Shown here one piece after another: positions 600 through 42,721 of a DNA stretch of 64,000 nucleotides; position 1 is the first letter of the stretch; every line of letters starts with the position of its first letter. Location: positions 93,157 to 157,156 of the forward strand of contig JBDKJY010000011.1 of NCBI GenBank assembly GCA_039796295.1. Direction: 5' to 3'. The position numbers and the translations under genes were made by a program. The notes beneath the pieces are model-generated. The model did not search any database. It was not told the DNA's origin and saw only the letters and a list, made by a program, of their open reading frames with translations. The DNA is from Verrucomicrobiota bacterium. Lineage in GTDB: Bacteria; Verrucomicrobiota; Verrucomicrobiia; Limisphaerales; SXTU01.

Positions 600-1544
600 A
601 TGACTCAAAGCCAAACTCACTCCTCGTTTCCCGTCACCCGCCAGGAATTTGCCTGCCTCGCTCAGGGCATCACGATCACCGGCCAGATGTTGCAGGCACA
701 CATCGCCGCCGGCACCGAGGTCGGCGAGCAGAACGCGCGGGTGCGACAAGATTCGCTGCACAATCCGGCAGAGCAGCGTCTGCTTTACCTGCAATACCAG
801 GCCCTCGCCCGGCAGGGGGTGCCGCTGCCATCGTTTGCGGAGGCTGGCTTCCGCGTTTACTCGCAGTCCGATGAGGACGGGTTACTGCTGCTCCTCTTCT
901 CACAGATTGGCTTCACCAATCGCCGTTGTGTGGAAATGGCGTTTGGCACGCCATACGGCGCGAACGTGACCAACCTCATTCTGAACTGGGGCTTCATGGG
1001 CTTGATGGTCGAGTGCAAGGCGGTTGAGGAGTCTCAGCGGTTCTTCGCCACGCATCGCGACACCTGGGTGTATCCGCCGCCGGTGGTGAAATCGTGGATC
1101 ACTCCGGAGAATGTGAACTTCCTCTGCCAGTCGCACGGCTACACCGGCTCGCTCGATTTTTTCTCGCTGGACATGGACAGCACTGACTACTGGGTTTGGG
1201 AGCGGCTCGATGCCATCCAGCCGCGGGTGGTGGTGGTGGAGTTCAACCCAGCGCTCGGGGCCGAGCGCAGCTTGACCATCCCCAACATCGCTGGCAGCCG
1301 CGAGCGGCACACGGCCTACTACGGTGCCTCGCTTACGGCACTGGTGAAGCTGGGCCGACGCAAGGGCTACCGCTACGTCGGTGCCAACCGCTACGGCTAC
1401 AACGCTTTCTTCGTTCGCGAGGATTCGGCTCCGGCCACCCTGCCGGCCGCATCCCTGGAGGATGCCTTCCAGCACCACCGCGCCCAGGAGTTGGTCGCGA
1501 AACAAGGTCCGGAGCTGGCCGCTTTCGAGTGGGTTGAAGTCTGA
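600..1544 (+). CDS. Hypothetical protein, glycan-cluster associated (possible FkbM-like fold)
   Basis: ATG at 600 follows a 10-nt gap after the upstream stop. The 36..599 part of ORF-track 36..1544 is an out-of-frame shadow of the methyltransferase. FRVYSQSDEDGLLLLLF resembles an N-terminal block I associate with FkbM-type proteins. No firm family call. Confidence 0.5.
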   Translation: MTQSQTHSSFPVTRQEFACLAQGITITGQMLQAHIAAGTEVGEQNARVRQDSLHNPAEQRLLYLQYQALARQGVPLPSFAEAGFRVYSQSDEDGLLLLLFSQIGFTNRRCVEMAFGTPYGANVTNLILNWGFMGLMVECKAVEESQRFFATHRDTWVYPPPVVKSWITPENVNFLCQSHGYTGSLDFFSLDMDSTDYWVWERLDAIQPRVVVVEFNPALGAERSLTIPNIAGSRERHTAYYGASLTALVKLGRRKGYRYVGANRYGYNAFFVREDSAPATLPAASLEDAFQHHRAQELVAKQGPELAAFEWVEV

Positions 1545-1557
1545 TCACACCGCCTTT

Positions 1558-4500
1558 ATGAAAATACACATTGTCTGCTACGAAGATGTCCACGGCTGGA
1601 TCCTCGGCAAGTTCGCCTTGAAGCTCCAGGAGCACCTCCGCCCGCTCGGCATCGCCGCCACCATTTCCAAGCAGCCCGACCCGCAAGCGGACATCAACCA
1701 CCACATCATTTACTACGACTACGATGGCCGGAAGACCACCACCGAGACCGTCATGGTCACGCACATTGACACCGACTGGAAACGCGAGCGTCTCCGCCAG
1801 CAGCTCGTCAACGCCGCGATGGGCATCTGCTGCTCGGCCGAAAGCGTGGACGCCCTCGCCGCCGCCGGTCTGCCGCGCGAAAAGCTCTGCTTCGTCAACC
1901 CCGGCCACGACGGCGAGATGCGCGCCCGCCGCACCGTCATCGGCATCACGAGCAAAGTTCAGCCCAGTGGCTGCAAACGCGAAGGCATCCTCCTCGACCT
2001 CGCTCAACGCCTCTCCCCCGATGAATTCCAGTTCCGCATCATGGGCACGGGCTGGGACGAGCACGTGAAGAACTTGCGCCTCGCCGGCTTCACCGTGGAC
2101 CACTGGAAAGCCTTCGACCGCCCGGAGTATCTCAAGCTGATGCCGAGCCTTGACTACTACCTCTACCTCGGCCTCGACGAAGGCTCGATGGGCTACATGG
2201 ACGCGCTCGCCGCTGGCGTGCAAACCATCGTCACCACGCAAGGTTTTCACCTCGACGCGCCCGGCGGCATCACGCACGGCTGGAGCGAACCCGCCGAGCT
2301 GTTCCGCATCTTCGAGAGCATCGCCCGCGAGAAACGCCTGCGTCAGCAAGCCGTCGCCAACTGGACTTGGCCCGAATACGCCAAGCGCCACTTGGCCCTC
2401 TGGCACTACCTGCTCGCCCGGCAGTCCGGCCAGTTGTTGAGCGCGTCCCTCCGCGCGCCGCTGGCCAAGATGGCCGTGCTCGTGGACAAAGGTGCCTTCG
2501 CCGAAGTGAAGTTGACCGAGGAAAGCAAGCCGGCGAAGCCATCCGATGACTCGCCGCAACGGCGTGAACTTCCCCCTGAAGTCATCCGCTCACTTCGCGC
2601 CCAGCACTCGCACTTGATGGCCGCCAATCCGGCCGCCGCTGCGACTTTCCGCAAGCAGTTCGCCAAGCAACCGCTCGACGCGGTCGTCGCGGACTTCGAC
2701 GGCGACCTAAAGTTCCGTTGCAGCCTGCACCACCACATCGGCAGCCAGATTTTCTGGCATGGCGGCTACTCGCAGGCACAGCTTCGCCTCCTGAGCCGGC
2801 TGCTCACGAGGCCGGACATGGTTTATCTCGACGCCGGCGCGAATGTTGGCGAGCAGACGGTCTTCGCCGCCAAGCGTCTTCCGCGCGGCCAGGTTTTTGC
2901 CTTCGAGCCGACCACGGAAGTTTTCCAGGTCCTCTCCGAAAACGTCCGGGCGAACGGCTTCACGCACGTCCGCGCCGAGAAGCTCGGTCTCGGCGAGCAG
3001 TCCGGCGAGCTGCCCATTTATTCGTCGCATGCCGAGGTTGCCAGCGATGGGACGGTGAACGAGGGCGTTCCGACGCTGTTCAGCTCCACCGACCGCGGCA
3101 CGGTCATCGAGCGGGTGAGGATTGTGCGCCTGGATGACTTCCTTGCGCCGCTCAACCTTCCGCGTCTGGACGTGATGAAGGTGGATGTCGAGGGCGCCGA
3201 GATGATTGTGCTCAAGGGCGCGGTGGAGACCATCAAGCGCCATCGGCCCGTGTTCATCGTCGAAGTCCACGAGGGCACCAGCCAGAGCGCCGGCCACTCC
3301 GTGCGCGAGCTGCTCCAGTTCATTCAGCGCCTGGGCTATCGCATCGAGGGCCTGCAACCTGACGGCGGAACGCGCCCCTTCACGGACAATCAACTGGCTG
3401 AGATTCGGGATGTGGTGTGCTTTCCGCTGCCGGTCGCGGCTGCGGCACTGGAGACGGATCAAACTCCCGCCATCGAAGCCGAAATCACCGCCGCGCTCGC
3501 CGTCGACCCGAACGACCGCGAAGCGCTCACCGCGCTGCTCTCCCTGCGGCTCGACCAATCACGCTGGGCCGAAGCCGCGAAGGCCGCGTTCCAACTGCTC
3601 CAGCAAACGCCGAACGAAGCGCCCATTCTCCAAGCTCTCGCCCACTGCCTTGACCAAACCGGCGAGCACGAAACCGCCGCCGCCGTGCGCGGGCGCATTG
3701 GAGCGCGGACGCCCACGTCCGCAGCACCTCCGAGTGATGAGTCGGCCAGCCACAACCCAACGCGGCCTGCGTCCCTCCCTCTCCCAGCGGGAGAGGGCCG
3801 GGGTGAGGGAGAACGCGTCCCTTCTTGCACCGTCGCCGCTCCGTCCACCGCAACGACTGCGGACGTAGGCGTCCGCGCTCCACGAGTCCTCCTCCTCGCC
3901 GATGTGCCCAACTGGATTTTCCACCGCCACTGCCAAGAGCTCACCGCCCGTCTCGGCGACGAGTTCACCTTCACCACGAAGTTCGCTGGCGAGCCGTTTA
4001 ACGAAGCCGACTACGACCTCATCTACCCGCTTGAGTTCAACCTCGTGAACCCCGCGTGCATCACCGACCCGCGCAAATACCTCACCGGCATCCGCTCCCA
4101 CTGCACCTGGCAGCGCCTCGGCTTTGAGCAAAGCATCGCCACGCTCAAGACCAACTTCGCCCACGTCCACGCCGTCTCCACGCGGTTGCAACGCATCTTC
4201 GCCCCGCACGTCCCGAGCCTCACGCTCCTCAGCCACGGCGTGGACACGAACTTCTTCACGCCCCGCGCCACGGCCACTTCACCCGCTGGCAAACTTCGCC
4301 TCGGCTGGGCCGGCAACCGCCTCTCGCCGAACAAAGGTTTCGCCGAACTCATCGCGCCGCTCGGCCAGCTTCCCGGCGTCGAACTCGTCTTCTGCGGCTA
4401 CGCCGACCGCAACCTAAACCGCGAACAGATGCGCGAGTTCTACGCCTCCGTGGACGCCGTGGTCTGCGCCTCCGACTTCGAGGGCAACAATAACTCGCTC

Positions 4501-7500
4501 CTCGAAGCCGCCGCGATGGCCCGCGCCCTCGTCACCACCGACACCGGCACGGTGCCCGAGTATCTCACCCACGGCGCGAGCGCTCTTATCGTCGAGCGCA
4601 CGCTGCCTGCTCTCACCGCCGCCGTGCTCACGTTGCGCGACCAACCGGAGCTGCGCGCAAAACTTGGCACCGCCGCTCGCGCCTCAGTCGTGGAGAAATT
4701 CTCTTGGGCGAAACTCGCCGAAGCCCACCGCGCATGGTTCCGCACCGCCCTTGCCAGCGCTGCGCCCGGCCAGCCTGACTACAACGAGATCGAGCAGCTC
4801 GCGCGGCAGGCCTTGGTCGAAAACCCGGATGGCGTGGAAGCCCTTTCGCTGCTGGCCCAAGCGCTCTTGCACCATCGCAACTTCAACGAAGCGGCGCGCG
4901 TATGCCTCCGCTTGCTCGAACTCCAACCAACCCACATCAACGCCCTCGCGATGCTGGCCAAGTGCCTATTCCAGGCCAACGAGCTCGCCGCCGCCCGCTC
5001 CACGCTGGAGCAAATCCTCGAACTCGAACCGAACAACGCAATGGCCCGGGAGAACCTCCAAGCCCTCGCGCAGCTCCAAGCCAATGGAGCGCGGACGCCC
5101 ACGTCCGCAGCCCCTGCCGACACAACGAAACCTGCTGCGGACGTAGGCGCCCGCGCTTCGCTCCCGCCGCACCTCCAGCCCGAACTCGACGCCGTCAGCG
5201 CCGCCTACGCAGCCGGCGACCTCCCTGCCGCACACGCCATCCTCCACCGAGCCTTCAAGGCGAATCCCGACTGCGACGCCCTCCGTGAGCTGGCCGCCGA
5301 GTCCACCGGCCTTGTCCGCGCTGCCTGCCCCGTGCCCGACTTCGGCGACGCCGTGAAGCCCGCGCGCTTGAACATCGCGCTGATGACCTTCAACGCGCTG
5401 GCTTACACCAAGCTCTGCCTCGCCAGCCTCCGGCAGCACAGCACCGAGGCTTACAACGTCTTCATCGTGGACAACGGCTCCACGGACGGCACGCGCGAGT
5501 GGCTCGCCGAGCAAACGGATGAAAACCTCTTCGTCGAGTTCAGCCCCGCGAACCTCGGCGTGCCCGGTGGCCGCAACCGCCTGCTCCAGCTCATCCAGCC
5601 GCACCTGCGCACCTCGGACTTCGTCATCTTCATGGACAACGACATCGAGGTGATGCCCGGTTGGGTGGAGCATTTCTCGAACTTCTTCGTCGCCAACCCG
5701 CACGTCGGAATCGCCACGGCAGTCGGCCACTACTTCAACGTGCGCGGCGACCTGCGTGAACTCGGCGCGGTGCCCGTCGGTGCGCCCACGCCAGTGGATG
5801 TGGCGTGCGGCGGTTTCGTGTGCTGGGTCCGCGCGGCTACGGCGGCGGCCGTGGGCGAGTATGATGAAAAGCTCGGCCTGTTCTGGCACGAAGATGACGA
5901 CTACACCGTCCGTGCGCTCGCGTCCGGCTGGGAAGTTTTCATCGTCCCCGGTGCTCCCGTGCTCCATCACGAGCACAAGTCCGGCGAAGCCAAACCCGGC
6001 ATCAAGGTCGGCGGCTCCCCGGCGAACCAGCGCTACCTCGCGAACAAGTGGCGCGCCCTCGGCCTGCTGGACGCGAACGGCAAACCGAAGCGGCCCAAGT
6101 CCCAAGTAGGTCAGCGCGTCTCGCCTGACCTTCAAACTAAAGTTCCCCCTCAAGCGGAGTCAGGAAGTCAGACGGACAGGCAGGATGCGCTGTCCTACTT
6201 CAAGGCGAAGCGCCCTCGCGTCACCCTCCCCATCCGCTGGGCCGCGCCGTTCTTCAATCCCACCGGTTACGCCAGCGAGGCCATCAACTTCGTCCTCCCG
6301 CTCTCGCACCAGCTCAACCTCGGCCTCTTCCACGACACCAACATCACCTCCGAGCAATTCACCGCCGAGCTGCCCGCTGCGGACCGCGACCGTTTGCTAG
6401 CTCTCCGCGACAAGTTCTTCCTCATGCGCGGCGGCGTGCTCGTCTCGCACAATCCGGCCTTCGCCTTCAAGCGCACGCCCGACGCGCTCTATCACGTCGG
6501 CCGCTCCATGTATGAGACCGACCGCATCCCCGCCGACTGGGTGACGTGCTGCAACGGCATGGACGAAGTCTGGGTGCCGAGCCAGTTCAACGTGGAGACG
6601 TTCGCCAACAGCGGCGTGCTGCGCGAGAAGCTCGTGGTCATCCCCGGCGCGGTGGATGAAAACCTCTTCGACCCCGCCAAGCACACGCCGCTGCCGCTGC
6701 CCAACGCGGCGAAGTTCAACTTTGTTTCCGTCTTCGAGTGGTCCGGGCGCAAGGCCTGGGACGTGTTGCTTGCCGCGTATCTGCGCGAGTTCTCCGCTGC
6801 CGATGACGTGTGCCTGCACCTCCGCACTTACCTCTTCGGCCACCCCGACGCCGACCCGCGCGACACGTTGGAACCGCTCATCCGCGACTTCGCGGCGAGC
6901 CTCGGGCTGGGCAACAAGGCGCTCCCGCGCATCCAGTTGCTCACTGAGCAAATCGCGACCGCCGACCTCCCGCGTCTCTACCTCGCGGCGGATTGCATCG
7001 TCGTGCCGAGTCGCGGTGAAGGCTGGGGTCGTCCGATGCATGAGGCGATGGCGATGGGCCGCCCGGTCATCGCGACCGGCTGGAGCGCGAACACGGAGTT
7101 CATGAACGCGGACAACTCCTACTTACTCGACTACGAGCTGGTGGAGGTGACCGGCGTGGAGCCGTATCTGAAACACTACCTCGGCCACCGCTGGGCGCAG
7201 CCCTCCGAGAAGCACCTCCGCGAGCTAATGCGCCGCGTGAAGGAGAACCCTTCCGAAGCCGCCGCGAAAGGCGCAAAGGCCCGCGCACACGTGACGAAAC
7301 ACTTCTCCCGCGCCGCCGTGGAGGAGAAGGTCATGCAGCGGCTGGAAGCCATTGAGCGGAAGTTCACCAAGGCGAGCTGTGAGCCGGTGTCGGCGAAAGT
7401 GCGTGTCCTTGAGCACGCGGCTGCTCTCCCTCAGCCAAGCGCGTCCTCCATCGCACTGGCCTGGTCCGGCTCCTTCCTCGACTTCGGTAGCCTCTCGCAC

Positions 7501-10500
7501 GTCAACCGCGAGCTGACGAGCGCCTTGGAAAAGCTCCCCGGCGTCCGGCTCACGCGCCTTGGCCAAAGCACGCTGAACGCTCCCAACGCGCTCGCCGGCC
7601 TCGCGCGCACGCTCAAGTCCACTGCGCCCACCGGCACCCAGGTCACCGTCCGGCATGCGTGGCCGCCGGATTGGCAACGGCCCGCGACTGGCAAGCTTGT
7701 CGTGATGCAACCGTGGGAGTTCGGCGCTTTGCCGCTCGATTGGGCGAAGCAAGCCGGCAGCGTGGACGAGTTCTGGGCTTACTCGAACTACGTCCGTCGC
7801 CTCTACCTTGCGGCCGGCGTCGCGCCCGAGAAGGTGAAAGTCATCCCGCTGGGCATTGACCCGGCGACGTTCCGACCTGACGCCAAGCCACTGCCGCTCG
7901 CGACGCGCAAGGCGTTCAAGTTCCTCTTCGTCGGCGGCACCATCTACCGCAAAGGCCCGGACGTGCTGCTGCGCGCTTACCTCGACACCTTCACCGCTGC
8001 CGACGACGTGTGTCTCGTCATCAAAGACTTCGGTGGCAACAGCGTTTACCAAGGCCAGACGCTCGGCACGCAAATCAAGGCCGCCCAAGCCCAGCCGAAC
8101 GCGCCGGAGATCCTCCACCTCACCGACGACCTGCCGCCCGAGTCGCTCCCGAGCCTCTACACCGCGTGCGATTGCCTCGTGCATCCGTATCGCGGCGAGG
8201 GCTTCGGCCTGCCTGTGCTCGAAGCAATGGCCTGCGCGCTCCCGGTTATCTGCACCGGCGGCGGCTCCACGGATGATTTCGCGACCGATGAGTTCGCGTA
8301 TCGCCTGCCCGCCGTGCGGAAGCCGATCGGCAACCGGGTCGGCAACATCGAGTTGGTCAGCGGCGGCTGGCTGTTTGAACCCGATGCGTCCGCGCTCGCT
8401 GCTCGTCTCCGGCACGTTCTTGGCAACCGCGACGAAGCCCGCGCCAAGGGCCGCGCGGCGAGCGAGTTCGCCCGCACGCAGTTCACCTGGCAACGCAGCG
8501 CGGAGGCGGTGGCCGCTTGTCTCACCGTGGAGGCCGTCCCAGCGGCAGCGGTGCCGGCCAAGCCGGAGCCGAGCCACGATCGGTCAGCGTTGCTGGTTCC
8601 CCTCGCCCCGCTCGGCCCGTCCGGTGACAGCGCGAGTGCGATGCAGAAGCCGAAGCTGAACTTCAAGCTCCCCACGGTCGCGCTCCTCGGCGACTTGTGC
8701 GCGGCGCGGGCCGCCTTGCAACGGAAGCAGTTCGTCCCGGCCTGGAGCGCCGTGCTGGACAGCTTGAAGGCGCGCCCTTTCAACCCGGACGCGTGGCTGC
8801 TGCTCGCCGAGATTGCCCGCGAAGCCGGTGACCTCCCGATGGCCACGCGGTGCGCCGAGCGCTGCCGCACGCTCGCCCCGCAGTGGCGCAGCGCGAAGAA
8901 GTTCCAGAAGACGCTGCCGACGCACGGACGCGACCCGAAGATTGCCTGGCCCGCGTTGCCCGCCGCGAGCGCCGCACCGCGCCTGTCGGTCTTCATCATC
9001 GCGAAGAACGAGGAGCGGTTCCTCGGCCAGTGCCTCGCTTCGATCAAAGGCTTGGCCGACCAACTCGTCGTCCTGGACACCGGCTCGACCGACCGCACCG
9101 TCGCTATCGCCCAGGAGCACGGCGCGGAAGTTCACCACGCTGTGTGGGAAGATGATTTCAGTGCCGCCCGGAATGCCGCGCTCGCGCACTGCACGGGCGA
9201 TTGGGTGATGTTCCTCGATGCCGATGAGGAGCTGCCGCCCGCCGAGCACGCGAAGCTGCGCGCCGACCTGCAAGCGCCCGGCGTGCTGGCCTTGCGCGTG
9301 CGGTTGCAGAACGCCGGGCTGGAGGACGACGGCTGCTGCCACGTTCCGCGCGTCTGGCGGAACGCGCCCGGCCTGTTCTTCTACGGGCGCGTCCACGAGC
9401 AGGTGTTCCCGAGCGTCCTCGTGAAGTGCGAAGCCTGGCATCTGGAAACGCGCCTCGGCACGACGACCTTGCGCCACCACGGCTACGATCCCGAGGTGGT
9501 GAAGGACCGGAACAAGATCGCGCGCAACCTCGCCTTGCTCCGCCGCGCCGTGCAGGAGCTGCCGGGCGAACTGAACTTGACCATGAACCTCGGTCTCGAG
9601 CTGGTGCGCTCCGGGCAGTTGCAGGAAGGGTTGGAACACTACCGGTTGGCCTTCAGTCAGCTCGCGGAACTGCCGAAGAAAGACATTGTGCCCGAGCTGC
9701 GCGAGTCACTCCTCACTCAATTCGTCTGCCACCTGCACACGGCGAAGCAAGTCGCCGAGCTGTTGCGCGTGCTGGAGTCGCGGACGGCGCGCGAGGGCGG
9801 GCTGACTGCCTCGATGCACTTCATGGCGGCGCTCGCCTGCCTCGAACTCAAGCGCTTCACCGACGGCGCGGAGCACGCCTGCCTCTGCCTCGCCAAGCGC
9901 CACCAACCCGTCCTCTCCCCCATCAACCGCGATATCCTGAAGGCCGGCCCGCACCATGTGCTGGCGCTGTGTCAGTGGGGCGCGCAGCAGCACGAGGAGG
10001 TGGAGCAAGCCTTCTTGAAAGCACTGGCCGAAGACGCTGGAGCGCGGGCGGCGCGTTTGGATTTCGCGCGTTGGTTGGCCGAACGCGGGCGCAAGGTGGA
10101 CGCGCTGCACTTGCTGCACAAGCTGGTGCCCGGCAGTGAGACCGAGCCGCGCGTGTGGCAGCTCGGCGCACAGATTGCGTTGAGTGAACCGGAGTTCATC
10201 GAGTTCGCCGGGGATTGGACCAGCGAGGCGGTGAGTCATCACCCGGAGAACACGGGGCTCGTGTCCTTGCGGGCCGAGGCGTTGTTGCTCGCGGGCGATG
10301 CGGAAGGAGCCATCGCGGTGATGGCACCGCTCCAGGCGGATTCGCCCACGCTCCACGCCGCGCGGCTGCTGGCCACGCTCGCCAGCGACGGCGGGTTGCC
10401 CGCCGGAGTCGCCCGGAACGAAGGGGCGGTGAGCGGTGAATTCCTGCGGTGGTATCGGCGGTTGGTGGAGTTCCGCACGAACAGCTTGCTCCTGAAGGTC

Positions 10501-10596
10501 AATGCGCGGCTGGCGGAGCTGGATAGCTTGCTGCCCACGGCGGCGCGGATATTGACCGCAGCGGTGGAGGAAGCCACGGCGGCGGAAACTCATTGA
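1558..10596 (+). CDS. Giant multidomain glycosyltransferase/methyltransferase/TPR protein (3,012 codons)
   Basis: Uninterrupted frame (ORF-track 1381..10596). First ATG at 1558 (MKIHIVCYEDVHGW), 13 nt after the upstream stop. Approximate in-frame modules:
- GT-B-like 1558-2450
- FkbM MTase 2700-3370 (YLDAGANVGE, VFAFEP, MKVDVEGAE)
- TPR 3470-3700
- GT4 3885-4745 (FEGNNNSLLEAAAMARALVTTD)
- TPR 4780-5085
- GT2 5365-6070 (FIVDNGSTDGT, DNDIEV)
- GT4 6210-7365 (PSRGEGWGRPMHEAMAMGRPVIAT)
- GT4 7445-8525 (PYRGEGFGLPVLEAMACALPVICT)
- TPR 8650-8910
- GT2 8975-9560 (SVFIIAKNEE, VLDTGSTDRT, LDADEE)
- TPR-like tail to 10593. Confidence 0.75.
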   Translation: MKIHIVCYEDVHGWILGKFALKLQEHLRPLGIAATISKQPDPQADINHHIIYYDYDGRKTTTETVMVTHIDTDWKRERLRQQLVNAAMGICCSAESVDALAAAGLPREKLCFVNPGHDGEMRARRTVIGITSKVQPSGCKREGILLDLAQRLSPDEFQFRIMGTGWDEHVKNLRLAGFTVDHWKAFDRPEYLKLMPSLDYYLYLGLDEGSMGYMDALAAGVQTIVTTQGFHLDAPGGITHGWSEPAELFRIFESIAREKRLRQQAVANWTWPEYAKRHLALWHYLLARQSGQLLSASLRAPLAKMAVLVDKGAFAEVKLTEESKPAKPSDDSPQRRELPPEVIRSLRAQHSHLMAANPAAAATFRKQFAKQPLDAVVADFDGDLKFRCSLHHHIGSQIFWHGGYSQAQLRLLSRLLTRPDMVYLDAGANVGEQTVFAAKRLPRGQVFAFEPTTEVFQVLSENVRANGFTHVRAEKLGLGEQSGELPIYSSHAEVASDGTVNEGVPTLFSSTDRGTVIERVRIVRLDDFLAPLNLPRLDVMKVDVEGAEMIVLKGAVETIKRHRPVFIVEVHEGTSQSAGHSVRELLQFIQRLGYRIEGLQPDGGTRPFTDNQLAEIRDVVCFPLPVAAAALETDQTPAIEAEITAALAVDPNDREALTALLSLRLDQSRWAEAAKAAFQLLQQTPNEAPILQALAHCLDQTGEHETAAAVRGRIGARTPTSAAPPSDESASHNPTRPASLPLPAGEGRGEGERVPSCTVAAPSTATTADVGVRAPRVLLLADVPNWIFHRHCQELTARLGDEFTFTTKFAGEPFNEADYDLIYPLEFNLVNPACITDPRKYLTGIRSHCTWQRLGFEQSIATLKTNFAHVHAVSTRLQRIFAPHVPSLTLLSHGVDTNFFTPRATATSPAGKLRLGWAGNRLSPNKGFAELIAPLGQLPGVELVFCGYADRNLNREQMREFYASVDAVVCASDFEGNNNSLLEAAAMARALVTTDTGTVPEYLTHGASALIVERTLPALTAAVLTLRDQPELRAKLGTAARASVVEKFSWAKLAEAHRAWFRTALASAAPGQPDYNEIEQLARQALVENPDGVEALSLLAQALLHHRNFNEAARVCLRLLELQPTHINALAMLAKCLFQANELAAARSTLEQILELEPNNAMARENLQALAQLQANGARTPTSAAPADTTKPAADVGARASLPPHLQPELDAVSAAYAAGDLPAAHAILHRAFKANPDCDALRELAAESTGLVRAACPVPDFGDAVKPARLNIALMTFNALAYTKLCLASLRQHSTEAYNVFIVDNGSTDGTREWLAEQTDENLFVEFSPANLGVPGGRNRLLQLIQPHLRTSDFVIFMDNDIEVMPGWVEHFSNFFVANPHVGIATAVGHYFNVRGDLRELGAVPVGAPTPVDVACGGFVCWVRAATAAAVGEYDEKLGLFWHEDDDYTVRALASGWEVFIVPGAPVLHHEHKSGEAKPGIKVGGSPANQRYLANKWRALGLLDANGKPKRPKSQVGQRVSPDLQTKVPPQAESGSQTDRQDALSYFKAKRPRVTLPIRWAAPFFNPTGYASEAINFVLPLSHQLNLGLFHDTNITSEQFTAELPAADRDRLLALRDKFFLMRGGVLVSHNPAFAFKRTPDALYHVGRSMYETDRIPADWVTCCNGMDEVWVPSQFNVETFANSGVLREKLVVIPGAVDENLFDPAKHTPLPLPNAAKFNFVSVFEWSGRKAWDVLLAAYLREFSAADDVCLHLRTYLFGHPDADPRDTLEPLIRDFAASLGLGNKALPRIQLLTEQIATADLPRLYLAADCIVVPSRGEGWGRPMHEAMAMGRPVIATGWSANTEFMNADNSYLLDYELVEVTGVEPYLKHYLGHRWAQPSEKHLRELMRRVKENPSEAAAKGAKARAHVTKHFSRAAVEEKVMQRLEAIERKFTKASCEPVSAKVRVLEHAAALPQPSASSIALAWSGSFLDFGSLSHVNRELTSALEKLPGVRLTRLGQSTLNAPNALAGLARTLKSTAPTGTQVTVRHAWPPDWQRPATGKLVVMQPWEFGALPLDWAKQAGSVDEFWAYSNYVRRLYLAAGVAPEKVKVIPLGIDPATFRPDAKPLPLATRKAFKFLFVGGTIYRKGPDVLLRAYLDTFTAADDVCLVIKDFGGNSVYQGQTLGTQIKAAQAQPNAPEILHLTDDLPPESLPSLYTACDCLVHPYRGEGFGLPVLEAMACALPVICTGGGSTDDFATDEFAYRLPAVRKPIGNRVGNIELVSGGWLFEPDASALAARLRHVLGNRDEARAKGRAASEFARTQFTWQRSAEAVAACLTVEAVPAAAVPAKPEPSHDRSALLVPLAPLGPSGDSASAMQKPKLNFKLPTVALLGDLCAARAALQRKQFVPAWSAVLDSLKARPFNPDAWLLLAEIAREAGDLPMATRCAERCRTLAPQWRSAKKFQKTLPTHGRDPKIAWPALPAASAAPRLSVFIIAKNEERFLGQCLASIKGLADQLVVLDTGSTDRTVAIAQEHGAEVHHAVWEDDFSAARNAALAHCTGDWVMFLDADEELPPAEHAKLRADLQAPGVLALRVRLQNAGLEDDGCCHVPRVWRNAPGLFFYGRVHEQVFPSVLVKCEAWHLETRLGTTTLRHHGYDPEVVKDRNKIARNLALLRRAVQELPGELNLTMNLGLELVRSGQLQEGLEHYRLAFSQLAELPKKDIVPELRESLLTQFVCHLHTAKQVAELLRVLESRTAREGGLTASMHFMAALACLELKRFTDGAEHACLCLAKRHQPVLSPINRDILKAGPHHVLALCQWGAQQHEEVEQAFLKALAEDAGARAARLDFARWLAERGRKVDALHLLHKLVPGSETEPRVWQLGAQIALSEPEFIEFAGDWTSEAVSHHPENTGLVSLRAEALLLAGDAEGAIAVMAPLQADSPTLHAARLLATLASDGGLPAGVARNEGAVSGEFLRWYRRLVEFRTNSLLLKVNARLAELDSLLPTAARILTAAVEEATAAETH
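3700..3881. repeat. MITE-like palindromic element with 25-bp terminal inverted repeats, in frame inside the giant ORF
   Basis: GGAGCGCGGACGCCCACGTCCGCAG (3700-3724) versus reverse complement of 3857-3881, 24/25 match. Interior carries a 9-bp-stem hairpin CCCTCTCCC-AGC-GGGAGAGGG (3777-3797). A 20-nt core (3789-3808) is identical, in inverted orientation, to 42609-42628. Confidence 0.8.
5086..5159. repeat. Short copy of the same TIR hairpin element, in frame inside the giant ORF
   Basis: Left arm 5086-5110 is identical to 3700-3724. Right arm 5135-5159 pairs 22/25. 24-nt loop. Encodes GARTPTSAAP...ADVGARA, mirroring the peptide at the first copy. Confidence 0.8.
6104..6200. repeat. Candidate third palindrome-bounded element in a giant-ORF linker
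   Basis: AAGTAGGTCAGCGC (6104-6117) versus reverse complement of GCGCTGTCCTACTT (6187-6200), 13/14. Inner stems AGGTCAG/CTGACCT and GGACAG/CTGTCC. Locally AT-richer. Sits between the GT2 and GT4 modules. Confidence 0.45.
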
Positions 10597-19374: not shown

Positions 19375-19842
19375 CTAACGGTCCGTGTCCGGCCGCCGTT
19401 CACTTTCGGAGCCAGATAAAGTGAGCTGCGGCGGCGCACTCGTGGCCAGCGGGTTGGCTTGGAAGGCCGCGCGTTCCAATAGGCCGAGCCAGTCGGTGAT
19501 GAGAACTTGAACGAACGCTAGGTCGAGCTGTGCGTGCCGTGCGGGGTAGGGCTGGAAGTTGGCCCGCGCCAGTTTGAACAGCGCGGCGGCGGGGCGCAGG
19601 CGCGGATATTTCGGGCAGTCCTTCTGCAGGTGAACGAACGCACCGGCGAGTTGGATGAGCCCTTTGTAAAAGTTGCCGTTCGGCCCGCGGCGGTCGGCGA
19701 GCCAGAGTTCCTCCAACACGTCGTGGGCTTCGTAGAACTGGCCGCGATTGAAGCACGCGAAGTAGCCGAGGTAGTGCGCCGGGAGGTCGCGGCCCTGTAG
19801 GTCGGCGATGAGATCGGCGATCTTGGGGGACTTGTGGCTCAC
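19375..19842 (-). CDS. DUF309 domain protein
   Basis: GYFACFNRGQFYEAHDVLEELW matches the DUF309 signature as I recall it. GTG start. Confidence 0.6.
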   Translation of the reverse strand: MSHKSPKIADLIADLQGRDLPAHYLGYFACFNRGQFYEAHDVLEELWLADRRGPNGNFYKGLIQLAGAFVHLQKDCPKYPRLRPAAALFKLARANFQPYPARHAQLDLAFVQVLITDWLGLLERAAFQANPLATSAPPQLTLSGSESERRPDTDR

Positions 19843-19920
19843 GACGGAGGTAGCCGCCGAGGTCAGGAGGCGGAGTCGCGATGTCCAGCCGTCCGCCTCC
19901 TCACCCTGGCGGTTATGGGT

Positions 19921-20509: not shown

Positions 20510-20525
20510 AGGTTGGATGTTGTTT

Positions 20526-20613
20526 AACGCAAAGACGCAAAGGCGCAAAGCCGTAAAGAAGGCCAGAGAAGCAAATCACTCTCTGCGTCTCTGCGCCTTT
20601 GCGTCTCTGCGTT
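20526..20613. repeat. Long hairpin with arms built from tandem 8-mers (CGCAAAGN)
   Basis: Arms 20526-20550 (AACGCAAAGACGCAAAGGCGCAAAG) and 20589-20613 pair 23/25. 38-nt loop. Lies in the 112-nt gap between the ThrC-like gene and the carrier gene. Confidence 0.85.
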
Positions 20614-20621
20614 GAAAAGAA

Positions 20622-21884
20622 TCATGCGGCTACCGGAGCCTTCTCCTCGTCCTTCAGCATCGCCTCGAACTCACGCAGGCTGGGCCGAATCTCGCGGGTT
20701 TGGCCCACATGGCCGGTCATCGCTTCGAGCGTCTTGAGGCCGTTGCCGGTGATGCAGAGGACGGCGGAGTCGGTCGCGGGAATCTTGCCAGAGGCGATGA
20801 GCTTCTTCGCCACGCCCACGGTCACGCCGCCAGCGGTTTCGGCGAAGATGCCTTCGCACTCGGCCAGCAGGCGGATGCCCTCGCGCACCTCGTCGTCGGT
20901 TACATCGTCGGCGTGGCCGCCGGTTTCTTTCATCACCTTGAGCGCGTAGAAGCCGTCGGCGGGCGTGCCGATGGCGAGGCTCTTGGCAATGGTGTTGGGC
21001 TTCACGGGCTTGAAGAAGTCCATGCCCGCCTTTTCGGCGGAGCTGATGGGGTTGCAGCCGGTGGCTTGCGCGCCGTGGATGTGCCACGCGCTGTCGGAGA
21101 TGAGGCCGAGCTTGGCGAACTCTTGGTAGCTTTTGTGAATCTTCGTGAGCAACGAGCCGCTGGCCATCGGCACCACGGTGTGCTGCGGCGTGCGCCAGCC
21201 AAGCTGCTCGCAAATCTCGAAGCCCATGCTCTTGCTGCCCTCGGCGTAGTAGGGGCGCATGTTCACGTTTACAAAGGCCCAGCCGAACTTGCCGGCAATC
21301 TCCGCGCACAGGCGGTTCACCTCGTCGTAGTGGCCCTTGATGCTGATGACGTTCGCGCCATAGACGAGCGAGTTGACGACCTTGCCGAGTTCGAGGTCGG
21401 ACGGGATGAAGACGTAGGACTTGAGGCCGGCGGCGGCGGCGTTCGCGGCGACGGAGTTGGCGAGGTTGCCGGTGGAGGCGCAGGCGACGGTCTTGAAGCC
21501 GAGCTCCTGCGAACGGCTGAGGGCCACGCTCACGACTCGGTCCTTGAAGGAAAGGGTCGGGTAGTTTACTGCGTCGTTCTTAATCCACAGCTCGCGGATA
21601 CCGAGGCACTTCGCCAGCCGGTCCGCCTTCACGAGCGGTGTGTAGCCGACCTGGCAACCGACGGTCGGCTCGCCCGCGATGGGCAGCAGCTCGCGGTAGC
21701 GCCACATGGTGCGGGGGCGCGACTCAATGGCGGCGCGGGTGAGGGATTGCTGGATGCGTTCGTAATCGTAAGCGACTTCGAGGGGGCCGAAATCAAACTC
21801 GCAGACGTGGGTGGCGCCCAGGGGGTATTCGCGACCGCACTCGCGGCACTTGAGTGCCTTCATGAAACCTTTGTGCTTGTCCAT
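20622..21884 (-). CDS. Threonine-synthase-family PLP enzyme (ThrC-like; candidate MetM-type homocysteine synthase)
   Basis: 420 aa. N-terminal zinc-ribbon-like CRECGREY..HVCE. PLP-lysine region NYPTLSFKDR. Family blocks ACASTGNLANS and CITGNGLK. Confidence 0.8.
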   Translation of the reverse strand: MDKHKGFMKALKCRECGREYPLGATHVCEFDFGPLEVAYDYERIQQSLTRAAIESRPRTMWRYRELLPIAGEPTVGCQVGYTPLVKADRLAKCLGIRELWIKNDAVNYPTLSFKDRVVSVALSRSQELGFKTVACASTGNLANSVAANAAAAGLKSYVFIPSDLELGKVVNSLVYGANVISIKGHYDEVNRLCAEIAGKFGWAFVNVNMRPYYAEGSKSMGFEICEQLGWRTPQHTVVPMASGSLLTKIHKSYQEFAKLGLISDSAWHIHGAQATGCNPISSAEKAGMDFFKPVKPNTIAKSLAIGTPADGFYALKVMKETGGHADDVTDDEVREGIRLLAECEGIFAETAGGVTVGVAKKLIASGKIPATDSAVLCITGNGLKTLEAMTGHVGQTREIRPSLREFEAMLKDEEKAPVAA

Positions 21885-33631: not shown

Positions 33632-33705
33632 TGCCCGATGGTGTAATGGTAGCACAACAGTCTCTGAATCTGTTTGTCATGGTTCAAATCCATGTCGGGC
33701 AACCA
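33632..33705 (+). tRNA. tRNA-Gln (anticodon CUG), CCA encoded
   Basis: Cloverleaf read by hand:
- acceptor TGCCCGA/TCGGGCA
- D arm GTGT-AATGGTA-GCAC
- anticodon arm ACAGT-CTCTGAA-TCTGT (one U-U at 31:39)
- variable TTGT
- T arm CATGG-TTCAAAT-CCATG
- discriminator A, CCA; U1:A72 as typical for tRNA-Gln. Confidence 0.85.
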
Positions 33706-40889: not shown

Positions 40890-41010
40890 GCGCCTCGTAT
40901 AGCGGGCGGCGCGGCGGAGGGGAAGGCGGTTTCTATCCGCAACCTCCCGAGGTCTCACGCGAAGGGCGCGAAGGGCGCAACGCCGAATTGATTTCCGGGC
41001 GGGCTAAGGA

Positions 41011-41106
<96 letters not shown>

Positions 41107-41191
41107 CCCTTAACTGCGGTTTCCAAGTTCACACCGAACGCCGCCGACAGCATCGGTATCACCCAGGGCGCTGACCTCCGGAACGACCGAA

Positions 41192-41401
41192 CCGTGCTCG
41201 GGACCGGCGCGACCGCTCCCGGGTCTGGTGCCGCCGGACCTTTGCCTGACGCCGCCGGACCTGTGTCTGGCCCGGCTAGACCCGGGTCTGACGCCGTCAG
41301 ACCTGAGTCTGACGCGGCCAGACAAGAGTCTGGCGCGGCCAGACCCGGGTCCAGCCCGGCCAGACAAGAGTCTGGCGGCTCCAAACCTGGGGTCGCCACC
41401 G
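41192..41401. repeat. Tandem array of about 9-10 units of 21 bp, each a short palindrome (CCAGAC-N4-GTCTGG-like)
   Basis: Units start at 41234, 41255, 41276, 41297, 41318, 41339, 41360 and 41381, with degenerate units from 41192. Examples: CCAGACAAGAGTCTGGCGCGG and TCAGACCTGAGTCTGACGCGG. Long ORFs run through the array in several frames on both strands. Confidence 0.85.
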
Positions 41402-41477
41402 GAAAAACCCTTGCCCTACCATTAGCAGTGTGTTACCCACCCTCCTGCATCTATTTGCAGTGTAGTGGTTCCGTTTT

Positions 41478-41963: not shown

Positions 41964-42492
41964 GACCGCCAACGGCGAGCACATCCCCTGTGCCGTCGAG
42001 GACGTGAGCGTCGAGATCATCGGCGCGGCCGTGGACCAGCTCGACCACGAGGTGGTGAAGCAAGCCGCCGCCGCCGTCCTGCACTACTTCAAGGTCGAGC
42101 GGAAACAAACCATCGTCACCATCGCGGAGTTCACCGCCGCGCTCGAGGAAGTCCTGCGCGGCCTCGGCCTCGCCATGACCGAGGCGGACCCCAAGCCCGC
42201 CCCCGAGCTGACCGGCACCGTAGCCGAGACCAGTCTGGACCTGCTCGCGGAGGAAACCGGCGATGGCGGGGAACTGCTCTTCTTCCCGCGCCTGCGGGAG
42301 GAGATGCGCCAGCAACTCAGCCAATCCCCGCGCCTCCTACGCTGTATCGGCCTGCACGACTGCGTGAAGCGCCTCGTCGGCGCGCGCCGCTGGTGCGACC
42401 GCTGCCGCGCGATGAGCGACCAGATCGTGGCCTACCTCCGCCAGTGCCTGGACGAGAACCACCGCGCCGATTGCTCGCTGGTGGTGAGTTAG
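41929..42492 (+). CDS. Hypothetical protein overlapping the nrdR 3' end
   Basis: Open frame with GTG 41929 (alternative ATG 41902). Acidic middle and Cys-rich tail (CIGLHDC..WCDRC). No family recognised. Confidence 0.45.
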   Translation: MIQLHSHCLVFETANGEHIPCAVEDVSVEIIGAAVDQLDHEVVKQAAAAVLHYFKVERKQTIVTIAEFTAALEEVLRGLGLAMTEADPKPAPELTGTVAETSLDLLAEETGDGGELLFFPRLREEMRQQLSQSPRLLRCIGLHDCVKRLVGARRWCDRCRAMSDQIVAYLRQCLDENHRADCSLVVS

Positions 42493-42512: not shown

Positions 42513-42721
42513 TGCTGGATGCTGGATGAGTCAGTCGCAGTATGTCACCGCTTCTAATACCAATTCCCAAAGCCAATCGGTGCCGTGCCGTCCTTTGGGC
42601 GCTTTCCACCTCACCCCGGCCCTCTCCCCCAGCGGAGAGGGACAAAGTCAGCCAGCGCTCGAAGTCACGACCGCGTTCAGCAGCTCGAACGCGGATCTCG
42701 TCGCTCATCCAGCATCCAGCA
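42513..42721. mobile_element. MITE-like intergenic element with 18-bp perfect terminal inverted repeats
   Basis: TGCTGGATGCTGGATGAG (42513-42530) versus 42704-42721. The arms are themselves (GCTGGAT)2. Internal hairpin CCCTCTCC-N6-GGAGAGGG (42620-42641). A 20-nt core 42609-42628 is shared with 3789-3808. Confidence 0.7.

Follow-up and report, generated by a model that had tools for sequence, protein, structure and literature searches.

Inverted pairs of REP-type palindromes are read in frame as interdomain linkers of a giant multi-glycosyltransferase gene in a Verrucomicrobiota bacterium

How can near-perfect inverted repeats come to lie, without a single stop codon, in the middle of the coding sequence of a giant enzyme? 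The question is raised by a 64,000-nucleotide stretch of a Verrucomicrobiota genome (assembly GCA_039796295.1, contig JBDKJY010000011.1, positions 93,157 to 157,156; hereafter referred to as the window, with positions counted from its first letter). Near its 5' end the window carries a gene for a protein of 3,012 residues that is built from several glycosyltransferase (GT) modules. Three interdomain linkers of this protein consist of pairs of palindromes of the repetitive extragenic palindromic (REP) type, arranged as inverted doublets and read in frame (doublets 1, 2 and 3). One of them, doublet 1, had been predicted from the letters of the window to be a palindromic element with terminal inverted repeats (TIRs) and with a second repeat nested inside.

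The giant open reading frame (ORF; 1558..10596, plus strand) is a genuine gene, and the elements lie inside its coding sequence. It starts with an ATG at position 1558, the frame being open from position 1381, and specifies modules in the order GT-like, FkbM methyltransferase, TPR-like, GT1-like, TPR, GT2, GT1, GT1, TPR, GT2 and TPR. The modules recognised by Pfam (FkbM methyltransferase, GT1-like, TPR, GT2, GT1, GT1 and GT2) are all encoded in this single frame, both before and after the elements. GC content at first, second and third codon positions (GC1/GC2/GC3) is 0.68/0.47/0.84, and the N-terminus MKIHIVCYEDV agrees with that of all orthologues. In nine syntenic orthologues of 65-87% identity the ORF stays open, in eight over 2,600-3,000 amino acids, and indels in the linkers are multiples of 3. 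The gene is accompanied by a methyltransferase gene upstream and a response-regulator/PAS kinase gene downstream. Each of the homologues down to approximately 50% identity is already a giant fusion.

Doublet 1 is contained wholly within the ORF (1381/1558-10596) and is free of stops. As claimed originally, it is a segment of 182 bp with inverted repeats of 25 bp at its ends, 24 of the 25 positions being matched (3700-3724 on the plus strand, 3857-3881 on the minus strand); when extended to 26 nt (3699-3724 and 3857-3882), the arms are 96% complementary (25/26). The left arm (3699..3724, plus strand, TGGAGCGCGGACGCCCACGTCCGCAG) is translated as GARTPTSA and the right arm (3857..3882, minus strand) as ADVGVRAP, and the final codon of the latter, CCA, specifies the proline of the conserved PR(V/I)LL start of the following GT module. 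Every 25-nt arm is itself a hairpin, GCGGACG-ccca-CGTCCGC at 3705-3722 on the left and GCGGACG-tagg-CGTCCGC (loop TAGG) at 3859-3876 on the right. The anatomy of an arm is that of a REP palindrome: a 7-bp stem GCGGACG/CGTCCGC with a 4-nt loop, set inside a conserved 25-nt unit. Across all six frames the arm has no stop codon. The spacer between the arms (3725..3856, plus strand) measures 132 nt; it holds one unit from a second repeat family together with non-repeat stretches of 31 nt and 39 nt.

The position assigned to this segment, stop-free between a TPR block and a GT module, was borne out by the ORF, by an AlphaFold model and by sub-threshold TPR hits. The block 5' of the doublet is helical, with TPR hits below threshold (TPR_17 at 23.7 bits against a cut-off of 24.4) and a predicted local distance difference test score (pLDDT) above 90; the module 3' of it is of the GT-B type and begins with RVLLLADVPNW. 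The model was computed for window positions 3448-4770 with the orthologue alignment as input. It consists of five confident helices up to residue 85 (pLDDT > 90), a stretch of 53 residues (87-139) with pLDDT < 50 and no secondary structure, and, from residue 146 onwards, a confident Rossmann-type GT fold. The low-pLDDT stretch maps to nucleotides 3706-3864 and so coincides with doublet 1, whose 61 encoded residues are predicted to be a disordered peptide between two confidently folded domains.

Doublet 2 (5086..5159, plus strand), the canonical copy, likewise matches its earlier description as a short copy with the same arms. These occupy positions 5086-5110 (no mismatch) and 5135-5159 (three mismatches), and the spacer (5111-5134) is only 24 nt long. 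With base 5160 the element amounts to 75 nt or exactly 25 codons (GARTPTSAAPADTTKPAADVGARAS). Doublet 3 (6104..6200, plus strand), unmentioned in the original prediction, is a GTAG-tagged REP pair (6106-6130, plus strand, GTAGGTCAGCGCGTCTCGCCTGACC; 6174-6198, minus strand, GTAGGACAGCGCATCCTGCCTGTCC). It stands in the linker following the first GT2 module and is translated as VGQRVSPDL...RQDALSYF.

In 100 dinucleotide-preserving shuffles no arm match was obtained. Predicted RNA folds were far more stable than those of shuffled sequences, with -111.4 kcal/mol (z -5.5) for positions 3690-3892 and -50.6 kcal/mol (z -6.5) for positions 5076-5169. The flanks of copy 1 (gcatt|...|acgag) and of copy 2 (ccaat|...|gctcc) are not direct repeats, i.e., no target-site duplication is visible at either, as is expected of HUH-type elements. 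The label of TIRs was abandoned: the arms are REP hairpins in an inverted doublet and not the ends of a miniature inverted-repeat transposable element (MITE). An Rfam gathering scan of the window returned only a SAM riboswitch and a tRNA and no match at the elements.

The interior of doublet 1 belongs to a second repeat family that is independent of the REP arms. The limits of its unit were set by alignment of more than 30 copies from the collected loci. The shared unit comprises approximately 62 nt (CCCAAYGCRG..GTCYCTCCCTCTCCCAGCGGGAGAGGGCCGGGGTGAGGGAGAAC), and its equivalent in the window is 3756..3817 (plus strand, CCCAACGCGG..GTCCCTCCCTCTCCCAGCGGGAGAGGGCCGGGGTGAGGGAGAACGCG, translated ..ASLPLPAGEGRGEGE..). 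Two features reported for the interior were recovered. One is a hairpin at 3777-3797 with a 9-bp stem and a 3-nt loop (CCCTCTCCC/GGGAGAGGG, 3777-3785 and 3789-3797); the other is a 20-nt core (3789-3808) which is the reverse complement of positions 42609-42628, two or more matches being found in no shuffle. The distant copy of the core (minus strand) is part of an element of approximately 209 bp (42513..42721) that is intergenic by ORF and GC3 mapping and is bounded by an inverted repeat of 18 nt without mismatch, TGCTGGATGCTGGATGAG. Positions 42411-42426 and 42694-42709 form another inverted match, of 16 nt. Units of the second family often occur as inverted pairs, 110-130 nt apart. In orthologue P0008 (orthologues and other proteins are numbered with P, collected loci with L) such inverted pairs, approximately 150 nt each, are located in two different linkers (L109 6355-6505 and 7765-7915) and encode ..LPHPSPLPLGEGAATNA....SLPLPAGEGRGEG...

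Copy 1 is a composite of two repeat families. Its spacer has 132 nt as compared to the usual 22-25 nt, of which the second-family unit explains only about 62. The idea of one element inside another was upheld in so far as a second-family unit does reside in the spacer, but insertion of that unit into a pre-existing doublet is only plausible: juxtaposed independent insertions (singlet arms), or loss of the right arm in relatives, fit equally well.

Arm and core are both widespread, and neither is unique to this locus. When one genome per GTDB species was scanned for exact matches to GGAGCGCGGACG-N4-CGTCCGCAG, at least 106 loci from at least approximately 43 assemblies were obtained. The figures that follow apply to the matches listed. 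They came mainly from Verrucomicrobiota and Acidobacteriota; the verrucomicrobial carriers were Limisphaerales, Pedosphaera, Opitutaceae, Prosthecobacter and metagenome-assembled genomes, and a few matches had other phylum labels. Single assemblies contributed at least 25 (JACRKB01) and at least 17 loci (CALQJI02). The loop CCCA was present in 65 of 121 exact arms. With up to three mismatches allowed, 64 doublets and 73 singlets were counted. Most doublet spacers measured 22-25 nt (mode 24 nt), their sequence being unrelated between copies, and many copies began within a few bases after a stop codon. An arm, a spacer of 22-25 nt, an inverted arm and a position behind a stop codon make up the anatomy known from REPs, from bacterial interspersed mosaic elements (BIMEs) and from REPINs, and doublets 1 and 2 are inverted pairs of a REP family with REPIN/BIME-like architecture. 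In the main family GTGG/GTAG spans the stem-loop junction and is not at the end of the element, where the REPs of Di Nocera, De Gregorio & Rocco (2013, BMC Genomics, PMC3733652) have GTAG/CGTC. Doublet 3 (6106, 6174) does start with GTAG; in a census of the collected loci this type was found only at the orthologous positions of L107 and L111. The arm sequence had no match in the searched literature. As a side observation, the CALQJI02 contigs (L004, L007, L011 and others) are labelled 'Klebsiella pneumoniae', yet they carry the Verrucomicrobiota-type REP in at least 17 loci together with PSCyt/PSD1-type genes; this label is almost certainly wrong.

The REP family is associated with a REP-associated tyrosine transposase (RAYT), at least as far as its variant with the loop TCCY is concerned. 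The gene product of L013 4771-5388 matched NCBIfam NF047646 (REP-associated tyrosine transposase) with 83.5 bits at a cut-off of 80, and also PF01797. It was the sole match to the motif YIxxNP in the window and in about 0.7 Mb of collected loci, the window itself containing no RAYT. The gene is flanked on both sides by inverted GGGAGCGCGGACG-N4-CGTCCGC hairpins, and the same flanking inverted hairpins accompany its relatives P0034 and P0037. These flanking REPs are sister variants of the arms (loop TCCY, 5' end GGGAGC) and were seen on three independent contigs (L013, L116 and L117/L118). For the exact variant of the window (TTGGAGC, loop CCCA/CCTA) we infer a RAYT link from that of its sisters. 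When RAYT homologues P0033-P0152 were inspected for C-terminal tails from the exact arm, tails were found in close relatives of L013 only, all of them of the TCCY-loop type.

The same REP is also found inside unrelated proteins. At unrelated loci, 20 elements were located in long ORFs whose GC3 is of the coding type on either side of the element. Fourteen of these were extracted, with the order GC1>GC2<GC3 on the sense strand, and 10 of the 14 were run against Pfam. Eight of the 10 proved to be recognisable proteins, the elements being stop-free REPs within ORFs as in PMC3733652 (ORF > 120 aa). In six of the eight the element is located between domains or just past the last recognised domain. 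Sites of this kind were found (i) between PSCyt1 and PSCyt2; (ii) between PSCyt2 and PSD1; (iii) between Laminin_G_3 and PSCyt2 or PSD1; and (iv) in an AMP-binding protein, immediately behind its PP-binding domain. The remaining two elements lie within the span of a domain: L090 371-452, between the second helix and the third strand of the REC receiver of a hybrid histidine kinase, and L065 2924-2998, in an FdhD-family protein. GARTPTSAA...ADVGVRAP is the main frame. The Arg-rich alternative (ERGRPRPQ) was met less often, and in none of the 14 cases was the right arm read in its Trp/Cys frames, a sample that does no more than suggest selection against the harsher peptides.

Comparison of orthologues showed that the linkers differ and that repeat insertion is tolerated there, in line with the predicted disorder between folded domains. 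The window protein and P0002-P0006 have doublet 2 in common as an orthologous element, which comprises exactly 25 codons every time. At the same position P0007 has a short, element-free linker, and other hairpin-repeat families are present in P0008 (AGDLQSP...DGDCKSP) and P0009 (SRLQAAE...PAEAGTP). In the linker of doublet 1 (linker 1), P0002-P0005 share the left arm and the second-family unit with the window but lack the right arm, a 39-nt in-frame indel. P0006 has a different REP doublet there (GGGGACACTCTTGTCCCC / GCGGACAAGAGTGTCCGC), P0008 a third kind of repeat, and no element is present in P0007 and P0009. A further canonical doublet follows the first GT-like module in P0002, P0003, P0004 and P0006, in a linker that has none in the window. 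Doublet 3 is common to P0002 and P0003, and other repeat-derived sequence is located at its position in P0004, P0005, P0006 and P0008. The spacers of orthologues are not reverse complements of each other, i.e., no inversion of the spacer between the arms was detected. Overall, only the window protein and P0002-P0006, a clade of at least 77% identity, carry the arms; they are missing in P0007 and in P0009-P0032, all of them giant fusions as well. This distribution indicates that the fusion is older than the elements, and hence favours insertion into existing linkers over fusion of genes across REP-bearing spacers.

We therefore favour the explanation that REP pairs inserted as passengers into linkers of an already fused giant gene, and assign it a probability of about 0.78. 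REP pairs normally reside in intergenic DNA, often just past stop codons, and are probably propagated or maintained by HUH/Y1 RAYT transposases acting on the hairpin in single-stranded DNA. Judging from the distribution among orthologues, copies may have landed in the sole permissive sites of the fused giant gene, the interdomain linkers. The arm is open in six frames, and the copies that were retained add whole numbers of codons; only copies adding whole codons and a harmless peptide would have survived. They would then be translated as a disordered peptide rich in Gly, Ala, Thr, Pro and Ser which lengthens the linker. The net effect would be that commensal passengers turn into neutral linker material, with the side effect that short identical sequences are provided at which modules can be deleted or exchanged.

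Several observations weigh against this explanation. All four arms in the 64-kb window fall inside the giant gene and none is intergenic, which leaves the abundance of the family in the source genome unproven. No empty site was found that is close enough to define insertion boundaries, the element-free P0007 and P0009 being too divergent in their linkers. Translation would have to proceed across stems of -50 to -111 kcal/mol. No RAYT adjoining the exact CCCA-loop/TTGGAGC variant was found in two targeted metagenome scans, for the CCCA-loop arm with YIxxNPxxAG downstream or with YLPH upstream (0 matches each), although these patterns are narrow and the evidence is weak. A further point emerged when divergence of doublet 2 was compared across six orthologues. 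Mean pairwise divergence was 0.044 in the arms (6 of 50 columns variable) and 0.358 in the spacer (16 of 24), as compared to 0.22 at flanking third codon positions (102 of 200) and 0.077 at flanking first and second positions (71 of 400). The arms diverge five times more slowly than the flanking third positions (Fisher p = 3e-7), while the spacer is indistinguishable from them (p = 0.19). Arms that diverge so slowly are maintained at the nucleotide level. A purely dead passenger should decay, and conserved arms call for gene conversion from other copies or for selection on the hairpin. Maintenance is not universal, as is evident from the decayed left arm of P0002/P0004 in linker 1 and the decayed copy in L093.

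Slow arms with a drifting spacer would be expected if the doublets were kept for their nucleic-acid structure, be it as a translational pause aiding co-translational folding, as a signal for mRNA stability or processing, or as a recombination joint. The very stable predicted stems fit this explanation, as does the fact that one and the same linker position holds three REP families in different orthologues, though shared occupancy is also expected if the linker is the only permissive site. The module between the first two GT domains is a variable cassette (FkbM, class I methyltransferase, DUF268 or none in the different orthologues) with REP arms at its borders. At the P0005 junction the sequence is identical to the linker-A flank and left arm of P0004 and then continues with the downstream sequence of linker 1 (L108 3958-4100 versus L112 3958-4031 and 4288-4400). 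This one junction suggests recombination between two arms of the same orientation with deletion of the TPR module. The junction also contains an additional segment of approximately 47 nt with a small palindrome, GCCGGTTTCCAAACCGGC. Taken further, REP doublets in giant modular genes, with arms that change at the pace of non-synonymous sites, might be built-in joints which are maintained at the nucleotide level and are not mere passengers, a notion we regard as improbable. Equally doubtful is the corresponding division of labour, in which the hairpins would part translation or folding of successive modules and the short identical sequences would allow modules to be deleted, swapped or added. If true, it would represent a bacterial, REPIN-mediated analogue of exon shuffling. 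Retention for structure is hard to reconcile with P0007, which lacks an element in linker 1 and at the site of doublet 2, with P0009, which lacks one in linker 1, and with the arm decay noted above, including the missing right arm in linker 1. Gene conversion among many genomic copies can conserve arms as well. On balance we consider retention for structure unlikely, albeit the most serious competitor of passenger insertion.

The other explanations are considerably less probable. The doublets could be relics of intergenic spacers, left behind when separate genes with REPINs in their gaps were fused through loss of stop codons. The usual place of the family just downstream of stop codons is in keeping with such an origin; the right arm adjoins PRVLLLAD, the beta-strand with which the following GT module opens and at which a separate gene would begin, and arms open in six frames would make read-through easy after stop loss. 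Against that, giant fusions are seen in every homologue to approximately 50% identity, the arms are restricted to the clade of at least 77% identity, the corresponding linkers of more distant orthologues are short and free of elements, and sister lineages hold different families at one position, which makes this origin very improbable. A classical MITE, i.e., a derivative of a DDE transposon with true TIRs into which a second MITE has transposed, would account for near-perfect inverted ends of 25-26 nt and for an interior holding a unit of another repeat family. It is contradicted by the missing target-site duplication, by interiors of which only the length is conserved among copies, by arms that are self-contained hairpins and also occur singly (the 73 singlets mentioned above), and by sister variants that flank RAYT genes. 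In about 0.7 Mb of collected loci no parent insertion sequence with a DDE transposase and the same 25-nt ends was seen, and we rate this explanation slightly lower still. The least credible alternative is that GARTPTSAA...ADVGVRAP is a selected peptide, for instance a glycosylation or protease site, and that the palindrome is incidental. The peptide does recur in several linkers and proteins, yet the same 25 nt are found on both strands of non-coding DNA and in other frames (LERGRPRPQ, SAD..VRS), third codon positions within the arms are conserved too, and each of the two 'motifs' is the reverse complement of the other. The non-coding copies contradict a protein motif, and of the explanations considered insertion of REP-pair passengers remains the one we prefer.

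Some further features of the locus were recorded. Other genes of the window have their best nucleotide matches, at about 70%, on contigs of Verrucomicrobiales and Limisphaerales metagenome-assembled genomes; like the repeat families, these matches point to Verrucomicrobiota, probably close to Limisphaerales/Pedosphaerales. Between the 254-aa methyltransferase gene and the giant gene the window has an extra gene of about 314 codons (601-1544, plus strand, MTQSQTHSSF...FEWVEV), where the orthologous loci L107-L112 have only about 10 nt; it looks like a lineage-specific insertion. A 201-aa ORF on the opposite strand (900-1505, minus) had been suspected to encode a RAYT but was rejected as merely the shadow of this ordinary gene. 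In the P0009 locus (L115 1-2972) genes for CsrA, flagellin and a methyltransferase/GT are located immediately upstream of the giant gene, neighbours which hint that the locus may glycosylate flagellin or another surface structure. Long palindromes of other families (e.g. ..CACAGAGGCACAGAG.. and ..GCAAAGACGCAAAGGCGCAAAG..) are present in the window at 41005-41112 and 41251-41386, both within the intergenic gap 41004-41465; at 20516-20623, across the gap 20576-20621 and overlapping the ORFs on both sides; and at 19851-19915, inside the predicted ORF 19375-19920 (minus strand). The two Rfam matches, a SAM riboswitch (RF00162, 21967-22087, minus strand, 71 bits) and a tRNA-Gln(CTG) (33632-33705, plus strand), are both ordinary.

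The locus illustrates that commensal or selfish non-coding repeats can turn into protein sequence harmlessly within interdomain linkers, and that a stop-free, GC-rich hairpin family can make up the greater part of a giant enzyme's linkers. The peptides GARTPTSAA..ADVGVRAP, SLPLPAGEGRGEGE and VGQRVSPDL..RQDALSYF in Verrucomicrobiota proteins are to be read as repeat-derived filler and not as motifs; such filler can mislead homology searches and calls of domain boundaries. With presence and absence of elements, replacement of families, conservation of arms and deletion from arm to arm, the orthologue series represents a natural experiment on REPIN turnover and can be used to test whether REPs promote module shuffling.

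Similar cases are known from other bacteria. Rickettsia palindromic elements (RPE-1 and others) are reportedly inserted in frame within protein-coding genes, where their location in surface or linker regions allows them to be translated and tolerated. RPE-1 is longer, at about 100-150 bp, and its hosts are AT-rich, obligate intracellular Alphaproteobacteria; no dedicated transposase is known for it. The elements of the window differ in being GC-rich REP hairpins of 25 nt that form inverted pairs and come from a RAYT-associated family of free-living Verrucomicrobiota. Given a GC content of 65% and the host, homology to RPEs is unlikely, and they may serve as an analogue only. Small non-autonomous repeats such as the bacterial in-frame MITEs of the Correia and Nezha types can likewise add coding sequence. 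MITEs have TIRs and target-site duplications and are derived from DDE insertion sequences, whereas neither target-site duplication nor derivation from a DDE insertion sequence was seen in the window family.

Closer in architecture are the REPIN-RAYT system (Bertels & Rainey 2011, PLoS Genet, PMC3116915) and the BIMEs of E. coli, in which an inverted REP pair with a short spacer likewise forms one long hairpin. Singlets as remnants, a single-copy RAYT flanked by its own REPs, and long persistence with mostly vertical inheritance are further points of likeness. REPINs, which supply the mechanistic frame, have however been described as extragenic, with conservation extending over the entire unit, spacer included, in young populations; the window family has intragenic copies and a free spacer sequence of which only the length of about 24 nt is kept, and the cognate RAYT of its exact variant was not found in the targeted scans. 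The closest precedent is the work of Di Nocera and colleagues (PMC3733652), who described GTAG- and CGTC-tagged REPs as monomers and head-to-head dimers within ORFs, with dimers encoding 20-30 amino acids and the largest number of intragenic REPs in the verrucomicrobium Opitutus terrae, and who suggested that the inserts occupy flexible linkers or loops of modular proteins. As in O. terrae, the window doublets are normally extragenic hairpin repeats within real ORFs. The peptides differ (GTGVPPV, VGPALAAG and VAGVGDP in O. terrae; GARTP and ADVGV are absent from the tables of that study), as does the main family of the window in that its GTRG tetranucleotide is not terminal. The present analysis adds presence and absence among orthologues, three families at one linker, a composite copy, the contrast in rate between arms and spacer, and an arm-to-arm deletion. 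The basic phenomenon having been published, the value of the locus lies in a well-resolved example and a lead and not in the discovery of a new class: it is a clear new instance of what has been described in Opitutus and Rickettsia, and not a new kind of element.

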